Shown: positions 1,068-12,529 of the stretch, in pieces
How positions within the stretch are numbered: position 1 is the first letter of the stretch
Layout: each line of letters starts with the position of its first letter
Virus record (IMG/VR): IMGVR_UViG_3300045988_101337
Coordinates: 1-23,444 of that record
From: a virus
Lineage: Duplodnaviria; Heunggongvirae; Uroviricota; Caudoviricetes
DNA: 23,444 bases
Reading direction: 5' to 3' (one strand)
Translations under genes and position numbers: made by a program
Notes under the pieces: model-generated
The model's database searches: none
Seen by the model: only the letters and a program-made list of their open reading frames with translations
Told to the model about the DNA's origin: nothing

Positions 1068-2081
1068 TTACTCTACTGTGGACACTGTGTGGACACTCTC
1101 GACCTCAGTACCACCTCTTAGCGGATTAAGAGAAATGGCGTCCTGAAGGTACTCTGGCGCAAAATGAGCGTAAACCATAGTTTGCTCAATCCGCGTGTGA
1201 CCTAGTATCCGTTGTAGCGTGATAATACTTCCTCCATTAATCATGAAATGAGTGGCAAAGCTGTGCCTTAGTGCATGTGTAGCTTGCCCCATTGGCAAAT
1301 CCGGTTTTATTGCTTTCATTGTTCGTCTGAAGCGAGGGTAATCAGCATCAGGGAATAAAAAACCTCGTTTGTTATCCGCGATCATTTTGGCAACAGCCTC
1401 TGAGATCGGGACGGTGCGTGGTTTGTTTGTTTTCGTTTTAACAAACGTGACGCGGTTATGGATGATATTTTCTGCTTTCAAACGAGCTGCTTCTCCCCAA
1501 CGTGCTCCTGTACTCAGGCAAAGAATCGCAATCTTTTTGTTGTCGCCGTCAAGTGCTGCAAGCAGTAAGGCAATTTCTTCCTGTGTGAGATAGCCTGTTT
1601 CTGGTTTTTCCTCCTTAAGCCTCTTTGTCCCTCTGATAGGGTGCTCACCAAAGAATAACTCCGCTTCAATCAGGGCTGTAAACATGCCGCTAATACATGT
1701 TAAATCACGATTGATACTCGAAGGTTTAATACCCTGACTTCTTCGGGTGGCGCAGTACTGGCTGATAAGGGATTTCGTGATTTGAAATGCGCATGGGTCA
1801 TTCGTTATTTTTGTGAAGATTTCAATTTTTCCAAGATTAGATTTCCCATGCTCTTCGTGTTTACCCTTTAAATCCCACCAGATCTGTGTCAGTTCCGACA
1901 GACGTCGTTTGTCTGTTGGTTTTGATAGCCATTCTTTATTGTGGTGGTTGTACAACGTGTATTTTTCGAAAGCGACAGCTTCGCTTTTCTTATCAAACTT
2001 CCTACGGATGCGTTTTCCGTTACGTCCAGTAGGGCGGATGTCCACTTCATATCGACCATCATCGAGTTTTTTGATTGCCAT
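1068..2081 (-). CDS. int: Phage integrase, tyrosine recombinase (337 aa)
   Basis: 337-aa ORF, the same length as P2 Int. The C-terminal region has tyrosine-recombinase residues (HALRHSFATHF ... MVYAHF). It is adjacent to the att core and preceded by a GGAGGG RBS on the minus strand. Confidence 0.93.
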   Translation of the reverse strand: MAIKKLDDGRYEVDIRPTGRNGKRIRRKFDKKSEAVAFEKYTLYNHHNKEWLSKPTDKRRLSELTQIWWDLKGKHEEHGKSNLGKIEIFTKITNDPCAFQITKSLISQYCATRRSQGIKPSSINRDLTCISGMFTALIEAELFFGEHPIRGTKRLKEEKPETGYLTQEEIALLLAALDGDNKKIAILCLSTGARWGEAARLKAENIIHNRVTFVKTKTNKPRTVPISEAVAKMIADNKRGFLFPDADYPRFRRTMKAIKPDLPMGQATHALRHSFATHFMINGGSIITLQRILGHTRIEQTMVYAHFAPEYLQDAISLNPLRGGTEVESVHTVSTVE

Positions 2082-4385: not shown

Positions 4386-4657
4386 GTATTCGTATTGAAA
4401 TTGGCGAACGTTATGTCGTTACCAGTGACAGCTTTCAGTTTATTCTCCACGAGAAAAAGAGAGCGGAAAGCGGTAAAAACGCCGGTCAGGAATGGCTGGC
4501 GGTGGTTGGTTATTATCCGAAATTAAGCCAGCTCGTTTCCGGCCTGATGCATCACGATATTCTGACCGGAAGCGCAAAGTCTTTTGCTGATTTAAACGCG
4601 CAGGTTGAGCAACTCAGCAGGCGTTGTTCAGAGGCTTTTGGCTCATATGGCCGTTAA
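4382..4657 (+). CDS. Small early hypothetical protein (P2 orf83 position)
   Basis: 91-aa ORF that overlaps the start of A. Confidence 0.5.
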   Translation: MSIRIEIGERYVVTSDSFQFILHEKKRAESGKNAGQEWLAVVGYYPKLSQLVSGLMHHDILTGSAKSFADLNAQVEQLSRRCSEAFGSYGR

Positions 4658-6926
4658 AGCCTCCGGGCGTTTTGTCCCTCCTTCAGCATTTGCTGCAGGC
4701 ACCGGTAAGGCGTTTACCGGTGCTTATGCATGGAACGCGCCACGCGAGGCCGTCGGGCGCGAAAGACCCCTTACACGTGACGAGATGCGTCAGGTGCAAG
4801 GTGTTTTATCCACGATTAACCGCCTGCCTTACTTTTTGCGCTCGCTGTTTACTTCACGCTATGACTACATCCGGCGCAATAAAAGCCCGGTACACGGGTT
4901 TTATTTCCTCACATCCACTTTTCAGCGTCGTTTATGGCCGCGCATTGAGCGTGTGAATCAGCGCCATGAAATGAACACCGACGCGTCGTTACTGTTTCTG
5001 GCAGAGCGTGACCACTATGCGCGCCTGCCGGGAATGAATGACAAGGAGCTGAAAAAGTTTGCTGCCCGTATCTCATCGCAGCTTTTCATGATGTATGAGG
5101 AACTCAGCGATGCCTGGGTGGATGCGCATGGCGAAAAAGAATCGCTGTTTACGGATGAGGCGCAGGCTCACCTCTATGGTCATGTTGCTGGCGCTGCACG
5201 TGCTTTCAATATTTCCCCTCTCTACTGGAAAAAATACCGTAAAGGACAGATGACCACGAGGCAGGCATATTCTGCCATTGCCCGTCTGTTTAACGATGAG
5301 TGGTGGACTCATCAGCTTAAAGGTCAGCGTATGCGCTGGCATGAGGCGTTACTGATTGCTGTCGGGGAGGTGAATAAAGACCGTTCTCCTTATGCCAGTA
5401 AACATGCCATTCGTGATGTGCGTGCGCGCCGCCAGGCAAATCTGGAATTTCTTAAATCGTGTGACCTTGAAAACAGGGAAACCGGCGAGCGCATCGACCT
5501 TATCAGTAAGGTGATGGGAAGTATTTCTAATCCTGAAATTCGCCGGATGGAGCTGATGAACACCATTGCCGGTATTGAGCGTTACGCCGCTGCAGAGGGT
5601 GATGTGGGGATGTTTATCACGCTGACCGCGCCGTCAAAGTATCACCCGACACGTCAGGTCGGAAAAGGCGAAAGTAAAACCGTTCAGCTTAATCACGGCT
5701 GGAACGATGAGGCATTTAATCCAAAGGATGCGCAGCGTTATCTCTGCCGTATCTGGAGCCTGATGCGCACGGCATTCAAGGATAATGATTTACAGGCCTA
5801 CGGTTTGCGTGTCGTCGAGCCACACCACGACGGAACGCCGCACTGGCATATGATGCTTTTTTGTAATCCACGCCAGCGTAACCAGATTATCGAAATCATG
5901 CGTCGCTATGCGCTCAAAGAGGATGGCGACGAAAGAGGAGCCGCGCGAAACCGTTTTCAGGCAAAACATCTTAACCGGGGCGGTGCTGCGGGGTATATCG
6001 CGAAATACATCTCAAAAAATATCGACGGCTATGCACTGGATGGGCAGCTCGATAACGATACCGGCAGACCGCTGAAAGATACTGCCGCGGCTGTTACCGC
6101 ATGGGCGTCAACGTGGCGCATTCCGCAATTTAAAACGGTTGGCCTGCCGACAATGGGGGCTTACCGTGAACTACGCAAATTGCCTCGCGGCGTCAGCATT
6201 GCTGATGAGTTTGACGAGCGCGTCGAGGCTGCACGCGCCGCCGCAGACAGTGGTGATTTTGCGTTGTATATCAGCGCGCAGGGTGGGGCAAATGTTCCGC
6301 GCGATTGTCAGACTGTCAGAGTCGCCCGTAGCCCGTCGGATGACGTTAACGAGTACGAGGAAGAGGTCGAGAGAGTGGTCGGCATTTACGCGCCGCATCT
6401 CGGCGCGCGTCATATTCATATCACCAGAACCACGGACTGGCGCATTGTGCCGAAAGTGCCGGTCGTTGAGCCTTTGACTTTAAAAAGCGGCATCGCCGCG
6501 CCTCGGAGTCCTGTCAATAACTGTGGAAAGCTCACCGGTGGTGATACTTCGTTACCGGCTCCCACACCTTCTGAGCACGCCGCAGCAGTGCTTAATCTGG
6601 TAGATGACGGTGTTATCGAATGGAATGACCCGGAGGTCGTGAGGGCGCTCAGAGGTGCATTAAAACACGGCCTGAGAAGACCAAACCGTCAGCAAAGAAA
6701 CGGAAGCCCGTTAAAACCGCATGAAATAGCGCCATCGGCCAGACTGACCCGGTCTGAACGATTGCAAATCACCCGTATCCGCGTTGACCTTGCTCAGAAC
6801 GGTATCAGGCCGCAGCGATGGGAGCTTGAGGCGCTGGCGCGTGGCGCGACCGTAAATTATGACGGGAAAAAATTCACGTATCCGGTCGCTGATGAGTGGT
6901 CGGGATTCTGGCATCAATTTGAGTAA
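4647..6926 (+). CDS. A: Replication initiation endonuclease A, rolling-circle initiator (about 759 aa); listed ORF 4605..6926 trimmed to the ATG at 4647
   Basis: Large ORF in the P2 A position. Starting at MAVKASGRFVPP gives a length close to P2 A (about 761 aa). The upstream in-frame ATG at 4605 lies inside orf83 and is less likely. It contains the HxH-like metal motif (PHWHMM) and a paired-tyrosine segment (YIAKYISK) expected of rolling-circle initiators. Confidence 0.9.
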   Translation: MAVKASGRFVPPSAFAAGTGKAFTGAYAWNAPREAVGRERPLTRDEMRQVQGVLSTINRLPYFLRSLFTSRYDYIRRNKSPVHGFYFLTSTFQRRLWPRIERVNQRHEMNTDASLLFLAERDHYARLPGMNDKELKKFAARISSQLFMMYEELSDAWVDAHGEKESLFTDEAQAHLYGHVAGAARAFNISPLYWKKYRKGQMTTRQAYSAIARLFNDEWWTHQLKGQRMRWHEALLIAVGEVNKDRSPYASKHAIRDVRARRQANLEFLKSCDLENRETGERIDLISKVMGSISNPEIRRMELMNTIAGIERYAAAEGDVGMFITLTAPSKYHPTRQVGKGESKTVQLNHGWNDEAFNPKDAQRYLCRIWSLMRTAFKDNDLQAYGLRVVEPHHDGTPHWHMMLFCNPRQRNQIIEIMRRYALKEDGDERGAARNRFQAKHLNRGGAAGYIAKYISKNIDGYALDGQLDNDTGRPLKDTAAAVTAWASTWRIPQFKTVGLPTMGAYRELRKLPRGVSIADEFDERVEAARAAADSGDFALYISAQGGANVPRDCQTVRVARSPSDDVNEYEEEVERVVGIYAPHLGARHIHITRTTDWRIVPKVPVVEPLTLKSGIAAPRSPVNNCGKLTGGDTSLPAPTPSEHAAAVLNLVDDGVIEWNDPEVVRALRGALKHGLRRPNRQQRNGSPLKPHEIAPSARLTRSERLQITRIRVDLAQNGIRPQRWELEALARGATVNYDGKKFTYPVADEWSGFWHQFE

Positions 6927-7015
6927 GGATCTCATCTATACAGTATAAGTAGTTTTGACTGTAATTGATTGTTTTTTATATGGTTGCATGCATTAAATCT
7001 ACGTCAATATCATTA

Positions 7016-7024
7016 TGTTATAAT
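7016..7024 (+). promoter_or_regulatory. Candidate extended -10 promoter (TGnTATAAT) for the cargo operon
   Basis: TGTTATAAT at 7016-7024, about 30 bp upstream of the ATG at 7053, in an AT-rich intergenic region after A. There is no good -35, which is consistent with the extended -10 class. Confidence 0.35.
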
Positions 7025-7052
7025 GCATTACTTAAAAATGTTGGAGATAAAA

Positions 7053-7244
7053 ATGTTAAAGCCTGCAGATGTTGTTTGTTTGAAAAGCGGTGGATTTAAA
7101 ATGACTGTATCTGACTCTACTGAAACTCATGCTAAATGTATTTGGCATGATAAAGAAGGAGTTTTGCACGAGGAGTCATTCTCCATTGATTTACTGGAAA
7201 TAGCAGAGAGTAAAAGTGGTATGCTTTGTCGTCCACGTAAGTGA
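7053..7244 (+). CDS. Small DUF2158/YodC-like protein (63 aa), first gene of the cargo cassette; listed ORF 6969..7244 trimmed
   Basis: ATG at 7053 follows a GGAGATAAAA RBS. The N-terminus MLKPADVVCLKSGGFKMTV resembles the conserved start of YodC/DUF2158 small proteins as I recall it. AT-rich. Confidence 0.5.
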   Translation: MLKPADVVCLKSGGFKMTVSDSTETHAKCIWHDKEGVLHEESFSIDLLEIAESKSGMLCRPRK

Positions 7245-7271
7245 ATCATAATAAAATTCACGGGGGAAAGT

Positions 7272-7952
7272 ATGAAACAATACAGCGAATTAGAAAACAA
7301 TGTTAAGAGATTCATTGTTGAGCATGAAAAAGGGATTTCTATTGATGATATTCATCATAAGTTCCGGATGAAGGATGGTCAGAATCGCAAGATGGCAGAT
7401 TATCTTATTAATAATAAAAAGATAATTTTGGAGATGAAAAGTCTTTTTTCTGACAGGGTCAAGAATGTCAATGATAAACTGAATGAGTTGGTTAAAACTG
7501 ATAGTTGGCTTGCAAAAAACTGGCATGGTGCTATTCATTTAGAAGAGTTGATAAAAAGACACCCAGACTCAAAGCGATTTAGAAATGATATAATGAACTT
7601 TGCTTATGAAAATATTAAAACAAAGATAGTTAAGGAAGCTAATAAGCAAATAAATGCAACAAAGGATGTTTTGGATTTAAATGACTCGATTGGCGGGTTG
7701 ATTTTGTTAAATGATAATGTCTTTTCACATGAGTCTAATTATTTGTCAGATGAAATATTATATTTGCTAGGCACAAAGAGATATTCGAGTGTTGAGTTTG
7801 TGGTTTATATTGCAAAATTGATTGATAAACAGGTTGATGTTTGTGTGCTACTTGACAGTCAATCTAAAAATAAAAATTATATTGAATGGTATATGAATAA
7901 TGTTTTTTTATTGAACTGGGCGTCTTTTAATAAATATGCAATAAAGATGTAG
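7272..7952 (+). CDS. Uncharacterised 226-aa protein in the variable A-cos locus (candidate defence protein)
   Basis: Long clean ORF with a GGGGGAAAG RBS, 27 bp after the small ORF and so probably co-transcribed. AT-rich and Lys/Asn-rich. No P2 counterpart. A possible D ... ExK arrangement (ADYLINNKKIILEMKS) is only a motif-level hint of a PD-(D/E)xK nuclease. Confidence 0.6.
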   Translation: MKQYSELENNVKRFIVEHEKGISIDDIHHKFRMKDGQNRKMADYLINNKKIILEMKSLFSDRVKNVNDKLNELVKTDSWLAKNWHGAIHLEELIKRHPDSKRFRNDIMNFAYENIKTKIVKEANKQINATKDVLDLNDSIGGLILLNDNVFSHESNYLSDEILYLLGTKRYSSVEFVVYIAKLIDKQVDVCVLLDSQSKNKNYIEWYMNNVFLLNWASFNKYAIKM

Positions 7953-8271
7953 TGGTGTGGATGGATATGAAATGAGTCAACCAAGATGCACCTTGGTCAG
8001 TAATCTCATGTGAGATACCACATATAACACCAAAAGTGTCAGGTTGATGGCCATTGTTCACCGTTTACAGCAGATTATGGTCAACGAAAATCTGACGCCT
8101 GACGAGCTGGTCGGGTGTGCCGAAATAGTCTGGGATAATTACGGGCGGTTTAACTATATCGGTCAGTCCAGAGTTGCGCCACCACCACGCAGACGATAGA
8201 GAACGCCGCCAGTCGTGAAACTTGTTTTCAGGCTGGCGGGGTTGAACAACGAGCGAAGTGAGGCGTTAGCA

Positions 8272-9213
8272 TTAAGTTAATTTTAATGAATGGTACTCTA
8301 TCGAGCTGATTGTAGATGCGATATATTTACGATCATTTACAGAGAGTATTGCCGCTAGTAGACGACATACCAGAGCCTGCATTTGTAGCAATATATCGCT
8401 ACCATATTGACAATCATTGATACTAGAGAAACCAAGCGGTTGCCCATTAAAAATGGCTTCATGAAAATTATCATTGCGTATAACTGAAACATTACATTCA
8501 TCTGTTGCCCATGACGGGATTTTTACACCGTAATTTTCGCACATCCAATACACTCTATTTTGATGAGATGGTTTTTTCTCTTTAATGACTTTATCCCTTT
8601 CATCCCATGCTATAGCAAAACAGCAATCAAGAGCCATATAAAGATACTGGAATTTCTCAAAGGAAAGGTATAGTGGGTTATGTGACAGGAATAGGGAGTG
8701 TATCACCGCAGCTATTCTTTTAATGGAGCGATCATCTTTTTGTTTGTCTTTTATATAGTTAAGTGCTAGCTCTATTACTTCTTTTTCAGAGCATCCAACG
8801 AGAATAAAGTCGGTTAACTTAGTGGGCTTGATAGTGGTTGCATCAAGAAAACCAGCGTCAGTGGTTGTCAATCTTATACCCTTGAAAAAAGAGAGGCACC
8901 ACACAACAAAGTTGAGAGTTTCTAACGAGGATGTGTTTTTTAATTTTAGTGTGTGCGTTTTGGGCATGCCGAATACTCGGTAACTATAAGGCATTGTGCA
9001 TGTGTCACCATTAAGGTTATATACCTTTCGATTCCCAGGGTATATCCAACCATTAACAACGTTTTTATCATTGTTAATACGTTCCACGTTCTCAATAAGA
9101 CCGGGTAAAGTACGCAAAGAAAATTGTTCAGTCTCAATGTTAACTTCTACTGGATAGTATCCAAACTCCGAAATAATCTCATTTGGTTGCTGTTCGTCAA
9201 CTTCACCTTGCAT
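8272..9213 (-). CDS. Uncharacterised 313-aa protein with a C-terminal RNxxxH (HEPN-like) motif; candidate abortive-infection or defence effector occupying the P2 old position
   Basis: Clean 313-aa ORF on the minus strand with a GGAGA RBS upstream of the ATG at 9213. AT-rich. It contains RNDNFH (R-x4-H) near the C-terminus and a second R-x5-H (RIAAVIH). It is convergent with the 226-aa gene. No P2 homologue is recognisable. Confidence 0.6.
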   Translation of the reverse strand: MQGEVDEQQPNEIISEFGYYPVEVNIETEQFSLRTLPGLIENVERINNDKNVVNGWIYPGNRKVYNLNGDTCTMPYSYRVFGMPKTHTLKLKNTSSLETLNFVVWCLSFFKGIRLTTTDAGFLDATTIKPTKLTDFILVGCSEKEVIELALNYIKDKQKDDRSIKRIAAVIHSLFLSHNPLYLSFEKFQYLYMALDCCFAIAWDERDKVIKEKKPSHQNRVYWMCENYGVKIPSWATDECNVSVIRNDNFHEAIFNGQPLGFSSINDCQYGSDILLQMQALVCRLLAAILSVNDRKYIASTISSIEYHSLKLT

Positions 9214-9549: not shown

Positions 9550-10584
9550 TCAGCCGTTGTCAGTGTCCAGTGAGTAGTTTTTAAAGCTGATGACCTCCTG
9601 ACCGAGCCAGCCGTTTATCTCGCGGATCCTGTCCTGTAACGGGATAAGCTCATTGCGGACAAAGACCTTTGCCACTTTCTCAATATCTCCCAGTGACCCG
9701 ACGTTCTCCGGCTTGCCGCCCATCAACTGAAAGGGGATACGGTGCGCGTCCAGCAGGTCAGCGGCGCTGGCTTTTTTGATATTAAAAAAATCGTCCTTCG
9801 TTGCCACTTCACTGAGCGGGATAATTTTAATGCCGTCAGCTTTCCCCTGCGGGGCATAGAGAAACAGATTTTTAAAGTTGTTGCGACCTTTCGACTTAAC
9901 CATGTTTTCGCGAAGCATTTCGATATCGTTGCGATCCTGCACGGCATCGGTGACGTACATGATGTATCCGGCATGTGCGCCATTTTCGTAATACTTGCGG
10001 CGGAACAGCGTAGCTGATTCATTCAGCCAGGCAGAATTAAGGGCGCTGAGATATTCCGGCAGGCCGTACAGCTCCTGATTAATATCCGGCTCCAGCAGGT
10101 GAAACACGGAGCCGGGCGCGAAAGGTGTCGGCTCGTTGAAGGACGGCACCCACCAGTAAACATCCTCCTCAACACCACGGCGGGTATATTTTGCCGGTGA
10201 GGTTTCCAGTCTGATGACCTTACCGGTGGTGCTGTAGCGCTTTTCCAGAAACGCATTACCGAACACCAGAAAATCCAGCACAAAGCGGCTGAAATCCTGC
10301 TGGGAAAGCCACGGGTGCGGAATAAACGTTGAAGCCAGAATATTACGTTTGACGTAAATCGGTGAGCTGTGATGTACGGCAGCACGCAGGCTTTTTGCCA
10401 GACCGGTAAAGCTGACCGGTGGCTCATACCATCTGCCGTTACTGATGCACTCGACGTAATCCAGAATGTCACGGCGGTCGAGTACCGGCACCGGCTCACC
10501 AAAGGTGAATGCCTCCATTTTCGGGGCGCTGGCGGTGATTGTTTTTGCCGCAGGTTGCGGTGTTTTCCCTTTTTTCTTGCTCAT
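9550..10584 (-). CDS. Q: Portal protein (344 aa)
   Basis: 344-aa ORF, the same length as P2 gpQ. It is translationally coupled to P (start and stop overlap at 10584) and adjacent to cos. Confidence 0.93.
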   Translation of the reverse strand: MSKKKGKTPQPAAKTITASAPKMEAFTFGEPVPVLDRRDILDYVECISNGRWYEPPVSFTGLAKSLRAAVHHSSPIYVKRNILASTFIPHPWLSQQDFSRFVLDFLVFGNAFLEKRYSTTGKVIRLETSPAKYTRRGVEEDVYWWVPSFNEPTPFAPGSVFHLLEPDINQELYGLPEYLSALNSAWLNESATLFRRKYYENGAHAGYIMYVTDAVQDRNDIEMLRENMVKSKGRNNFKNLFLYAPQGKADGIKIIPLSEVATKDDFFNIKKASAADLLDAHRIPFQLMGGKPENVGSLGDIEKVAKVFVRNELIPLQDRIREINGWLGQEVISFKNYSLDTDNG

Positions 10585-12356
10585 CAGTAAAACTCCAGAA
10601 TGGTGGATGTCAGCGGAGTGCTGATACCGGCGGTGAGTGGCTCATTTAACAGGGCGTGCATGGTCGCCCAGGCGAGGTCGGCGTGGCTGGCTTCCTCGCT
10701 GCGGCTGGCCTCATAGGTGGCGCTGCGTCCGCTGCTGGTCATGGTCTTGCGGATAGCCATAAACGAGCTGGTGATGTCGGTGGCGCTGACGTCATATTCC
10801 AGACAGCCACGGCGGATGACGTCTTTTGCCTTGAGCACCATTGCGGTTTTCATTTCCGGCGTGTAGCGGATATCGCGCGCGGCGGGATAGAACGAGCGCA
10901 CGAGCTGGAACACGCCGACACCGAGGCCGGTGGCATCAATCCCGATGTATTCAACGTTATATTTTTCGGTGAGTTTGCGGATGGATTCCGCCTGGGTGGC
11001 AAAGTCCATGCCTTTCCACTGGTGACGCTCAAGTATTCTGAATTTGCCACCGGCCACCACCGGCGGTGCCAGCACCACGCATCCGGCGCTGTCGCCACGG
11101 TGTGACGGGTCGTAACCAATCCATACCGGACGTGAGCCGAACGGATTGACGGCAAACGGCGCATAGTCTTCCCATTCTTCCAGCGTATCGACCATGCAGC
11201 GTTGCAGCTCCTCGAACGGGAACACCGACGCCTTGTCGTCAACAAATTCACACATGAACAGGTTTTTAAAATCGTCGGCGCTGTTTTCACGTTTGAGCTG
11301 CTCAATGTCGAACAGCGTGCAGCCACCTTTCAGGGCATCCTCAATGGTGACAATCTGCCGCCACTGGCCGTCCGCACAGAGAAGCCCACCGGCAAGGGCG
11401 TTATGACTGACGTCGATTTCCACGCGTTCGGCGGCGCTGGCGCGTCCCCGGTTGAACAGTTCACCTGACCAGAACGGGTAGGCGTCGTGCGCCAGCGTGG
11501 ACGGGGTGGAGAAATAGGTCGAGCGCAGGTGACTCTGTGAGGCCATACCTGATGCCACCTTACGCAGTACCTGAAAATTCGGGATCCAGAAAATCTCGTC
11601 GACGTACAGGTCGCCGTTATGGCTCTGCGCGGTGTTGGAGTTGGTGCCGAGAAAAATCAGTTTTGCGCCGTTATTGCCAAGGACAATCGGGTCACCGGTC
11701 AGGTCAACGTCAACCAGACGGGCAAAGGCGATGATGTATTCACGGAACACATACGCCTGCGTTTTACTGGCCGACAGAAAAATCTGGTTATGACCGGTTT
11801 TCAGGGCGCGCAGCAGCGCCTCGCGGGAAAAATAAAACGTCGCGCCAATCTGGCGGGATTTCAGGATATCGCGGATGCGGTGCTCAAGCCCGGCGCGATA
11901 CCAGTGCAACTGATATTCAAAAGACTGCTCAAAGAAAATCTGCTCCAGCTTTTCGATGGCCTCGTCACTGAAAAAATTCTTTTTCGGTTTGCGACGCCCG
12001 CCTTTGTTGCGGTTAGCGACGTTCGGATTAAGGTCTGCCTCGTTGCCGGTCTGACTGTAGCGGTTGACCCGTGCCAGTCGTTCAATCTGACGTCCCAGCA
12101 GGTCAATTTCCTTGAAGTCACCGCCGGTTTTCTGCGGTTTGATGATGAGCTGGGTCAGCCGCGCTTCCAGACTCATTTCGACACGGCTGATGGGGGCAAC
12201 GCTGTCCCAGCCGTCGCGCTGTTTCCAGCTCTGCACCGTCGGGCGTTTCATCTGCAACATGGCGGCAATCTGCGGCACGGAAAACCCCTGCCAGTACAGC
12301 AGCGCCGCCTGACGACGCGGGTCGTGTAAAAGAGTGGTGTCTGTGGTGATGGTCAT
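10584..12356 (-). CDS. P: Terminase large (ATPase) subunit (590 aa); listed ORF 10584..12386 trimmed to the ATG at 12356
   Basis: Starting at MTITTDTT gives 590 aa, the length of P2 gpP. It sits upstream of portal in the leftward Q-P late operon. Confidence 0.93.
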   Translation of the reverse strand: MTITTDTTLLHDPRRQAALLYWQGFSVPQIAAMLQMKRPTVQSWKQRDGWDSVAPISRVEMSLEARLTQLIIKPQKTGGDFKEIDLLGRQIERLARVNRYSQTGNEADLNPNVANRNKGGRRKPKKNFFSDEAIEKLEQIFFEQSFEYQLHWYRAGLEHRIRDILKSRQIGATFYFSREALLRALKTGHNQIFLSASKTQAYVFREYIIAFARLVDVDLTGDPIVLGNNGAKLIFLGTNSNTAQSHNGDLYVDEIFWIPNFQVLRKVASGMASQSHLRSTYFSTPSTLAHDAYPFWSGELFNRGRASAAERVEIDVSHNALAGGLLCADGQWRQIVTIEDALKGGCTLFDIEQLKRENSADDFKNLFMCEFVDDKASVFPFEELQRCMVDTLEEWEDYAPFAVNPFGSRPVWIGYDPSHRGDSAGCVVLAPPVVAGGKFRILERHQWKGMDFATQAESIRKLTEKYNVEYIGIDATGLGVGVFQLVRSFYPAARDIRYTPEMKTAMVLKAKDVIRRGCLEYDVSATDITSSFMAIRKTMTSSGRSATYEASRSEEASHADLAWATMHALLNEPLTAGISTPLTSTILEFY

Positions 12357-12529
12357 GAATACCTCGCCGTGATGAATACACGGCAAGGCTACTGAGTCGC
12401 GCCCCGCGATTCGCTAAGGTGCTGTTGTGTCAGTGATAAGCCATCCGGGACTGATGGCGGAGGATGCGCATCGTCGGGAAACTGATGCCGACATGTGACT
12501 CCTCTACTCACTATTCAGGACTCCTGACA

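Follow-up and report, generated by a model that had tools for sequence, protein, structure and literature searches.

The window analyzed here is a stretch of viral DNA of 23,444 nucleotides (IMG/VR record IMGVR_UViG_3300045988_101337, positions 1 to 23,444); it represents an E. coli prophage of the P2-like type (Peduovirus). A small gene of the DUF2158/YodC family lies at 7053–7244 on the plus strand and encodes 63 amino acids. It heads an accessory cassette of two genes, which occupies the variable interval between replication gene A and portal gene Q. The second cistron, open reading frame (ORF) 226, lies at 7272–7952 on the same strand and encodes a candidate PD-(D/E)xK nuclease of 226 amino acids. 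The interval between the genes for gpA and gpQ is a known hotspot of variable cargo; the exclusion genes old and tin lie there, alongside a number of validated defense systems (Rousset et al. 2022, PMC9122126).

The first protein reads MLKPADVVCLKSGGFKMTVSDSTETHAKCIWHDKEGVLHEESFSIDLLEIAESKSGMLCRPRK, followed by a stop codon. The Pfam profile DUF2158 (PF09926) matches residues 6–46 over profile positions 4–48 of 50, with 33.1 bits and an E value of 4.7e-8. The gathering score of this profile is 22.3 bits, and the protein lies above this cut-off. It also matches phrog_3261 in PHROG (E 1.2e-19). Every invariant or near-invariant column of a 63-sequence family alignment (V8, G13, G14, M17, C29, W31, and L48) is present, as is the family core xGDVVxLKSGGxxMTV...CxWxD...L. 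In BLASTP, the protein is 31% identical to E. coli K-12 YodC (b1957) over 48 amino acids (pairwise E 2e-7). The original prediction for this locus had named the DUF2158/YodC family from the N-terminus of the protein, and the profile score, the hallmark residues, and the identity to YodC all bear this out. No relative in the PDB was found by sequence for this protein or for ORF226.

The gene is genuine. Its ratio of nonsynonymous to synonymous substitution rates (dN/dS) against five homologues is 0.19–0.30; it is therefore a coding gene under purifying selection. A Shine–Dalgarno sequence, GGAG (7043–7046, plus strand), lies 6 nucleotides 5′ of the ATG at 7053 and is kept in all aligned homologues. 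RefSeq holds the identical 63-residue protein as WP_001547483.1, named "DUF2158 domain-containing protein". A longer form of 73 residues, starting from the ATG at 7023, appears as ORF73 of P2-EC67 (AM157369) and in some protein clusters (P0001, 73 amino acids). Two observations speak against this reading. In the Citrobacter homologues, the upstream ATG is out of frame or stopped after three codons, and the ATG at 7023 sits within a conserved −10 box. The conserved start is that of the 63-residue form, which RefSeq also uses.

The DUF2158/YodC family is large, with 3853 matches among the candidates of one profile search. The subfamily of the window protein is small and comprises seven clusters at 49% identity or above in the profile search. 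Its hallmark is a basic C-terminal tail, SGMLxRxRK, which reads SGMLCRPRK here. A tblastn search with the 63-residue protein found two identical copies only among 50,697 phage records. A single-sequence, word-indexed protein search gave six clusters; the homologue set was taken from exhaustive HMMER and profile searches.

The DUF2158 gene is the first gene after gene A. Its stop codon is separated from the start of ORF226 by 27 nucleotides, and each gene has a separate ribosome-binding site. That of ORF226 was read from the sequence as the purine-rich GGGGGAAAG (7262–7270, plus strand), and the AM157369 record annotates a ribosome-binding site at the equivalent place. Both genes lie in an AT-rich insertion that runs from about 6930 to about 8000, with a GC content of 31–35% compared with approximately 55% in gene A and the flanks. 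Beyond it is a P2-backbone segment of about 260 base pairs (8012–8269, GC about 48%) that is outside the cassette and matches many P2-like phages (P2, Wphi, P22H4, and others) at 85–93%. This segment separates the cassette from a second, separate AT-rich hotspot module, ORF313 (8272–9213, minus strand, 312 amino acids, phrog_5937). ORF313 had no match in Pfam, PADLOC, or NCBIfam, and it occurs without the DUF2158 cassette in P2-like phages of Yersinia (98.7% identity). Since ORF313 lies on the opposite strand, beyond the backbone segment, and stands alone in these Yersinia phages, the cargo operon consists of DUF2158 and ORF226 only. The operon that DUF2158 had been predicted to lead thus exists, with DUF2158 as its first gene and a co-directional gene 27 nucleotides downstream, but it is limited to these two genes.

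Upstream of the cassette is a promoter-like element (6996–7024, plus strand). It consists of the 11-mer AATCTACGTCA (6996–7006), a spacer of 9 nucleotides, and a putative extended −10 box, TGTTATAAT (7016–7024), with a predicted transcript start at about 7031. In the upstream alignment of homologues from E. coli, Citrobacter, and metagenomes, the pattern AATCTAC(G/A)TCA with TGnTATAAT is invariant down to about 50% protein identity. The element is better conserved than the DUF2158 coding sequence. The 11-mer occurs exactly once in the window and is present as a single copy upstream of DUF2158 in every DUF2158-led locus that we fetched, including an inovirus-like contig, L097, that lacks ORF226. 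The element lies at 4939–4967 in L097, at 1264–1292 in the diverged locus L098, and at 5942–5970 in L003. The best promoter from a consensus scan, TTGACT-18-TATGGT at 6955–6984, was set aside as weaker and not conserved. The cassette probably has an extended −10 promoter of its own, from which it would be transcribed.

The 11-mer may be a site for a regulator, because it has no resemblance to a sigma-70 −35 box. The regulator could be the DUF2158 protein itself: by binding the AATCTACGTCA element, which overlaps the −35 region, the protein would control how strongly the cassette is expressed. No locus of the subfamily departs from the element, L097 without ORF226 included, and the element differs from the sigma-70 −35 consensus. 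A basic tail, RxRK, is conserved in the subfamily, and several fold relatives of its predicted barrel bind nucleic acid (PWWP with single-stranded DNA, OapB, and KIN17). However, a related arrangement, ACACGTCA...TGATAAT, precedes the solo ORF226 genes of Pantoea plasmids (L010, 4944–4972), which have no DUF2158, and the motif may therefore be a mere part of the promoter or a site for a host factor. DUF2158 also has no recognizable DNA-binding motif. We consider autoregulation by DUF2158 quite unlikely.

The structure predicted for the DUF2158 protein has a pLDDT of 85, with values above 90 over residues 1–50. It is a small, five-stranded barrel with a disordered basic tail. The five strands are arranged as in the SH3-like barrel that characterizes KOW domains. 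As modeled, DUF2158 is a KOW/SH3-like barrel of approximately 50 residues, a binding-module fold with no catalytic features. The model resembles the KOW domains of NusG, Spt5, and RfaH and the SH3-like barrels of NdhS, HspQ, and Tudor/PWWP proteins, but there is no profile relationship to them. An hhalign comparison of the family profile with the C-terminal domain of E. coli NusG gave a probability of 5.6% and no KOW relationship, and a Pfam scan of the 63-residue protein matched DUF2158 alone and no KOW family. The family search also recovered DUF2158 units in tandem, up to eight per protein, and in fusions. Among the metagenomic proteins P0037 (1057 amino acids), P0040 (600 amino acids), P0036 (1515 amino acids), and P0141, some carry seven or eight tandem units, and one family member is fused to KTSC. 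The tandem arrays and this fusion show the barrel in use as a module that can be repeated.

The ORF226 model is closest in fold to restriction-endonuclease-like nucleases. Lower-scoring fold alignments included N.BspD6I, the XisI-like 2okf, CdiA-CT nuclease toxins, NucC, PspGI, SdaI, Can2, and cap-snatching endonucleases. Across 13 homologues, down to 64% identity, the residues E8, D43, and E54-x-K56 do not vary, and the L098 fragment has them too. In the model, E8 lies in a helix (6–18), D43 precedes a strand (44–46), and E54-M-K56 lies on a strand (51–57). This is the PD-(D/E)xK pattern of D...(D/E)xK on adjacent strands with an acidic residue in the first helix. A Foldseek search against the PDB gave nothing significant, and no sequence library (Pfam, PADLOC, NCBIfam, and PDB) recognizes ORF226; for these reasons, we call the assignment probable and not established. 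ORF226 is probably a restriction-endonuclease-like PD-(D/E)xK nuclease, judging from the modeled fold and the invariant residues.

The two genes are inherited together. Among 5426 complete E. coli genomes, the two occur in the same 27 and are adjacent in each of these. A hidden Markov model scan of all fetched ORF226 loci found DUF2158 directly upstream in every locus of the P2 type. In P2-like prophages of Citrobacter, the pair is the sole or main content of the hotspot. The genes diverge in step: identities in Citrobacter are 74–76% for one and 75–83% for the other, and in L098 both are at about 50%. The L098 pair is the most diverged (52% for DUF2158 and about 50% for the N-terminus of ORF226) and has a gap of 26 nucleotides. 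No relative of ORF226 was found in a scan of species-representative genome contigs.

As objects, the gene and the cassette were already known; they are annotated in RefSeq and catalogued by Rousset et al. The locus is 93% identical in DNA to ORF73/ORF226/ORF313 of P2-EC67 (AM157369, a GenBank record of 2006), and the DUF2158 proteins are 100% identical. The same two proteins are listed as P2-hotspot system 63, "DUF2158", with 67 occurrences (Rousset et al. 2022, PMC9122126, Table S5B). System 63 is not among the cloned systems of that study, and the protein strings are found in Table S5 only and not in Table S2A/B. ORF73/ORF226 of P2-EC67 and system 63 are the same cassette, and the sole difference is the 73-residue start from a non-conserved upstream ATG in the older record. 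We also compared the cassette with the validated "hp+hp+hp" (3HP) P2 system of the same study and rejected an identity, as the proteins of that system (about 340, 350, and 225 amino acids; E. coli E1114) differ. A literature search found no paper that gives DUF2158 a function and none on phage protection by system 63. New here are the two-gene structure, the co-occurrence and the solo variants, the predicted folds, the conserved promoter motif, and the survey of family neighbors.

From this evidence, we tentatively propose that DUF2158 is a binding or modulator subunit, not an enzyme, in a two-gene exclusion cassette that acts through a nuclease, a reading to which we give somewhat less than an even chance. 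DUF2158 would be an expressed small barrel protein with a short basic tail, leading an accessory (moron) cassette that was inserted in the gpA–gpQ hotspot. It would bind a ligand (nucleic acid or protein) or ORF226 itself, and this binding would tune when, or on what, the putative nuclease acts. Through the nuclease, the cassette could give the lysogen an exclusion or defense phenotype against other phages. The cassette as a whole would probably serve inter-phage exclusion. The proposal draws on the co-inheritance of its genes, its AT-rich DNA in the hotspot of old and tin, its curation as one system by Rousset et al., and the invariant residues of ORF226. The part given to DUF2158 as a binding subunit draws on the tandem and fused units, as seen in binding modules, and on published neighbors of the family: genes whose products begin with a YodC domain flank variants of the defense reverse transcriptases UG2/DRT2, and one of these products also has a WYL-like domain (Mestre et al. 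2022, PMC9226505).

Several observations weigh against this proposal. ORF226 homologues with 64–65% identity occur without any DUF2158 ORF on IncFII-type plasmids of Pantoea ananatis (L010–L014, 5001–5723) and in three metagenome contigs (L015, L105, and L106). These solo homologues have 240 amino acids, with a 14-residue C-terminal extension, and the Pantoea copies adjoin the plasmid replication region (repA, a gene for a PLD-like nuclease, and a KTSC gene). Conversely, the inovirus-like contig L097 has a solitary DUF2158 gene, 54% identical, which is preceded by the same promoter motif and followed by a hairpin terminator of its own. Neither gene strictly needs the other, as these two solo forms demonstrate. 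The libraries give no help either: DUF2158, ORF226, and ORF313 have no match in PADLOC-DB v2 at E values up to 1, and neither Pfam nor NCBIfam supports a defense function of DUF2158 or ORF226.

The wider family adds to these points. We surveyed 52 distinct DUF2158 genes on viral contigs and their 149 nearest ORFs of at least 90 amino acids within about 0.9 kb. No Pfam family occurs in more than two of the 149, and the Pfam matches are to ordinary phage functions (terminase, portal, lysis, replication, and antirepressors). PADLOC matches, all weak, were found in three. The survey used a crude greedy ORF caller, PADLOC of 2023, and no matched background, and it shows the absence of a strong signal, not of a modest enrichment. 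Bacterial DUF2158 genes follow smpB or a lipocalin gene, or are part of a Vibrio island; these contexts are housekeeping or miscellaneous, and yodC of K-12 is solitary. The family-wide association with defense loci that the original prediction had envisaged is therefore not seen, with UG2/DRT2 as a published exception. The specific association of DUF2158 here is with ORF226 and the P2 hotspot, and not with defense genes at large.

These data also bear on the idea that DUF2158 is an independent moron gene, with a stand-alone function such as modulation of a host process or counter-defense, tied to ORF226 only by joint acquisition and inheritance. The monocistronic unit of L097, the DUF2158-less ORF226 of the Pantoea plasmid clade, the lack of a recurrent partner among unrelated genes at the 52 phage loci, and the solitary chromosomal members such as yodC all fit this idea. 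In Salmonella, YodC is a stress protein under the control of RpoS (PMC5437024), and KTSC, the small domain fused to one family member, is also encoded near the Pantoea plasmid replication region. Set against this are the adjacency of the genes, which is strict in every P2-type locus and in each of the 27 E. coli genomes, and the preservation of the pair and its short spacing at about 50% identity. This is longer than accidental linkage would be expected to last in a hotspot with such rapid turnover of its contents (PMC13586616). Complete independence of the two genes is rather unlikely in our judgment, although less so than the other alternatives considered here.

The gene order is that of a type II toxin–antitoxin operon, with a protein of 63 residues followed by one of 226 on the same strand after a 27-nucleotide gap. 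DUF2158 might then bind a toxic ORF226 nuclease and hold it in check until DUF2158 is itself degraded, either upon infection or when the element is lost. The solo forms speak against this: ORF226 homologues with all of the invariant putative catalytic residues exist where there is no DUF2158 ORF (L010–L014, L015, L105, and L106), and DUF2158 exists without ORF226. Furthermore, the library scans matched neither protein to a known family of toxins or antitoxins, and the DUF2158 family is mostly solitary. The KOW/SH3-like barrel is not known as an antitoxin fold. An obligate antitoxin is improbable, since ORF226 homologues stand alone on the Pantoea plasmids and a close DUF2158 is alone in the inovirus-like contig. 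Of the regulatory or antitoxin-like role suggested earlier, a looser regulatory or accessory role of DUF2158 is plausible.

Some further observations concern these variant loci. Two variants with a disrupted DUF2158, P0005 and P0002, were considered in connection with the antitoxin idea; one of them lies at a contig end. In L097, which encodes Zot and a secretin, the unit of promoter, DUF2158, and terminator (4886–5278) is found just after an Xre/MbcA/ParS-type antitoxin gene. It is flanked by two palindrome copies, TTAGGCA(g/a)AATTGCCT (4886–4905 and 5263–5278), and could be a small mobile or recombination-bounded module. In L114 (3498–4171) and L115 (3143–3816), a 52%-identical DUF2158 lies 17 nucleotides 3′ of smpB, the gene for the tmRNA partner, on the same strand. 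One variant of this smpB–DUF2158 arrangement has a ParE toxin pair inserted right after DUF2158.

Comparison with known systems places the modulator proposal in context. The window protein shares family (PF09926, COG5475), size, and single-domain architecture with E. coli YodC. It differs in being phage-borne and not chromosomal, with only 31% identity, a basic tail, and a dedicated downstream partner. In the UG2/DRT2 loci (Mestre et al. 2022, PMC9226505), a YodC/DUF2158 domain stands beside a defense-type effector, as here, and this points to a part as an accessory or regulator. There, the domain is the N-terminus of a larger protein next to a reverse transcriptase, whereas here it is a free-standing protein of 63 residues next to a nuclease-like one. 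A Pfam scan of the window found no reverse transcriptase in the hotspot. With old, tin, and other gpA–gpQ systems, the cassette shares the slot, the AT-rich foreign composition, a promoter that is probably its own, and the small size. It is similar neither in sequence nor in domains to Old, to Tin, or to the DUF4238, 3HP, DprA-PRTase, and TIR systems that have been validated.

A broader possibility is that DUF2158/YodC barrels are general, small, trans-acting sensor or adaptor subunits that couple diverse immune effectors to one shared ligand of the cell or of a phage. Among the effectors would be a PD-(D/E)xK-like nuclease here and the UG2/DRT2 reverse transcriptases elsewhere. The ligand might be part of the transcription–translation machinery, given the KOW-like fold and the members next to smpB. 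We regard this generalization as unlikely.

The remainder of the window is consistent with a P2-like prophage. An integrase gene lies at 1068–2081 (minus strand), replication gene A at 4605–6926 (plus strand; Pfam Phage_GPA, 411 bits), portal gene Q at 9550–10584 (minus strand), and a terminase gene at 10584–12386 (minus strand). The backbone segment at 8012–8269 lies between two modules of unrelated cargo and is probably an anchor for recombination. RefSeq places within it, at 8044–8199, a protein of 51 residues named "meiotically up-regulated 80 protein", and this name looks like a spurious transfer. Rfam found no family anywhere in the window, and a repeat search of the hotspot gave chance-level pairs only.

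As it stands, the finding concerns a gene that was already annotated and catalogued, in a family whose general link to defense is unsupported. The cassette of 0.9 kb, with a predicted KOW-like barrel, a nuclease-like protein, a conserved promoter-like element, and natural solo variants, is nevertheless a cheap and well-defined test case. The gpA–gpQ hotspot of P2 has repeatedly given new anti-phage systems (Rousset et al. 2022, PMC9122126). If the cassette does not protect, it would show that not every cargo of the hotspot is defensive. If the broader adaptor reading is true, the P2 cassette would be a new two-component exclusion system and would provide the first function for a widespread DUF. 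If the cassette does protect against phage, it would be one more such system and would give a first functional handle on the DUF2158 family.
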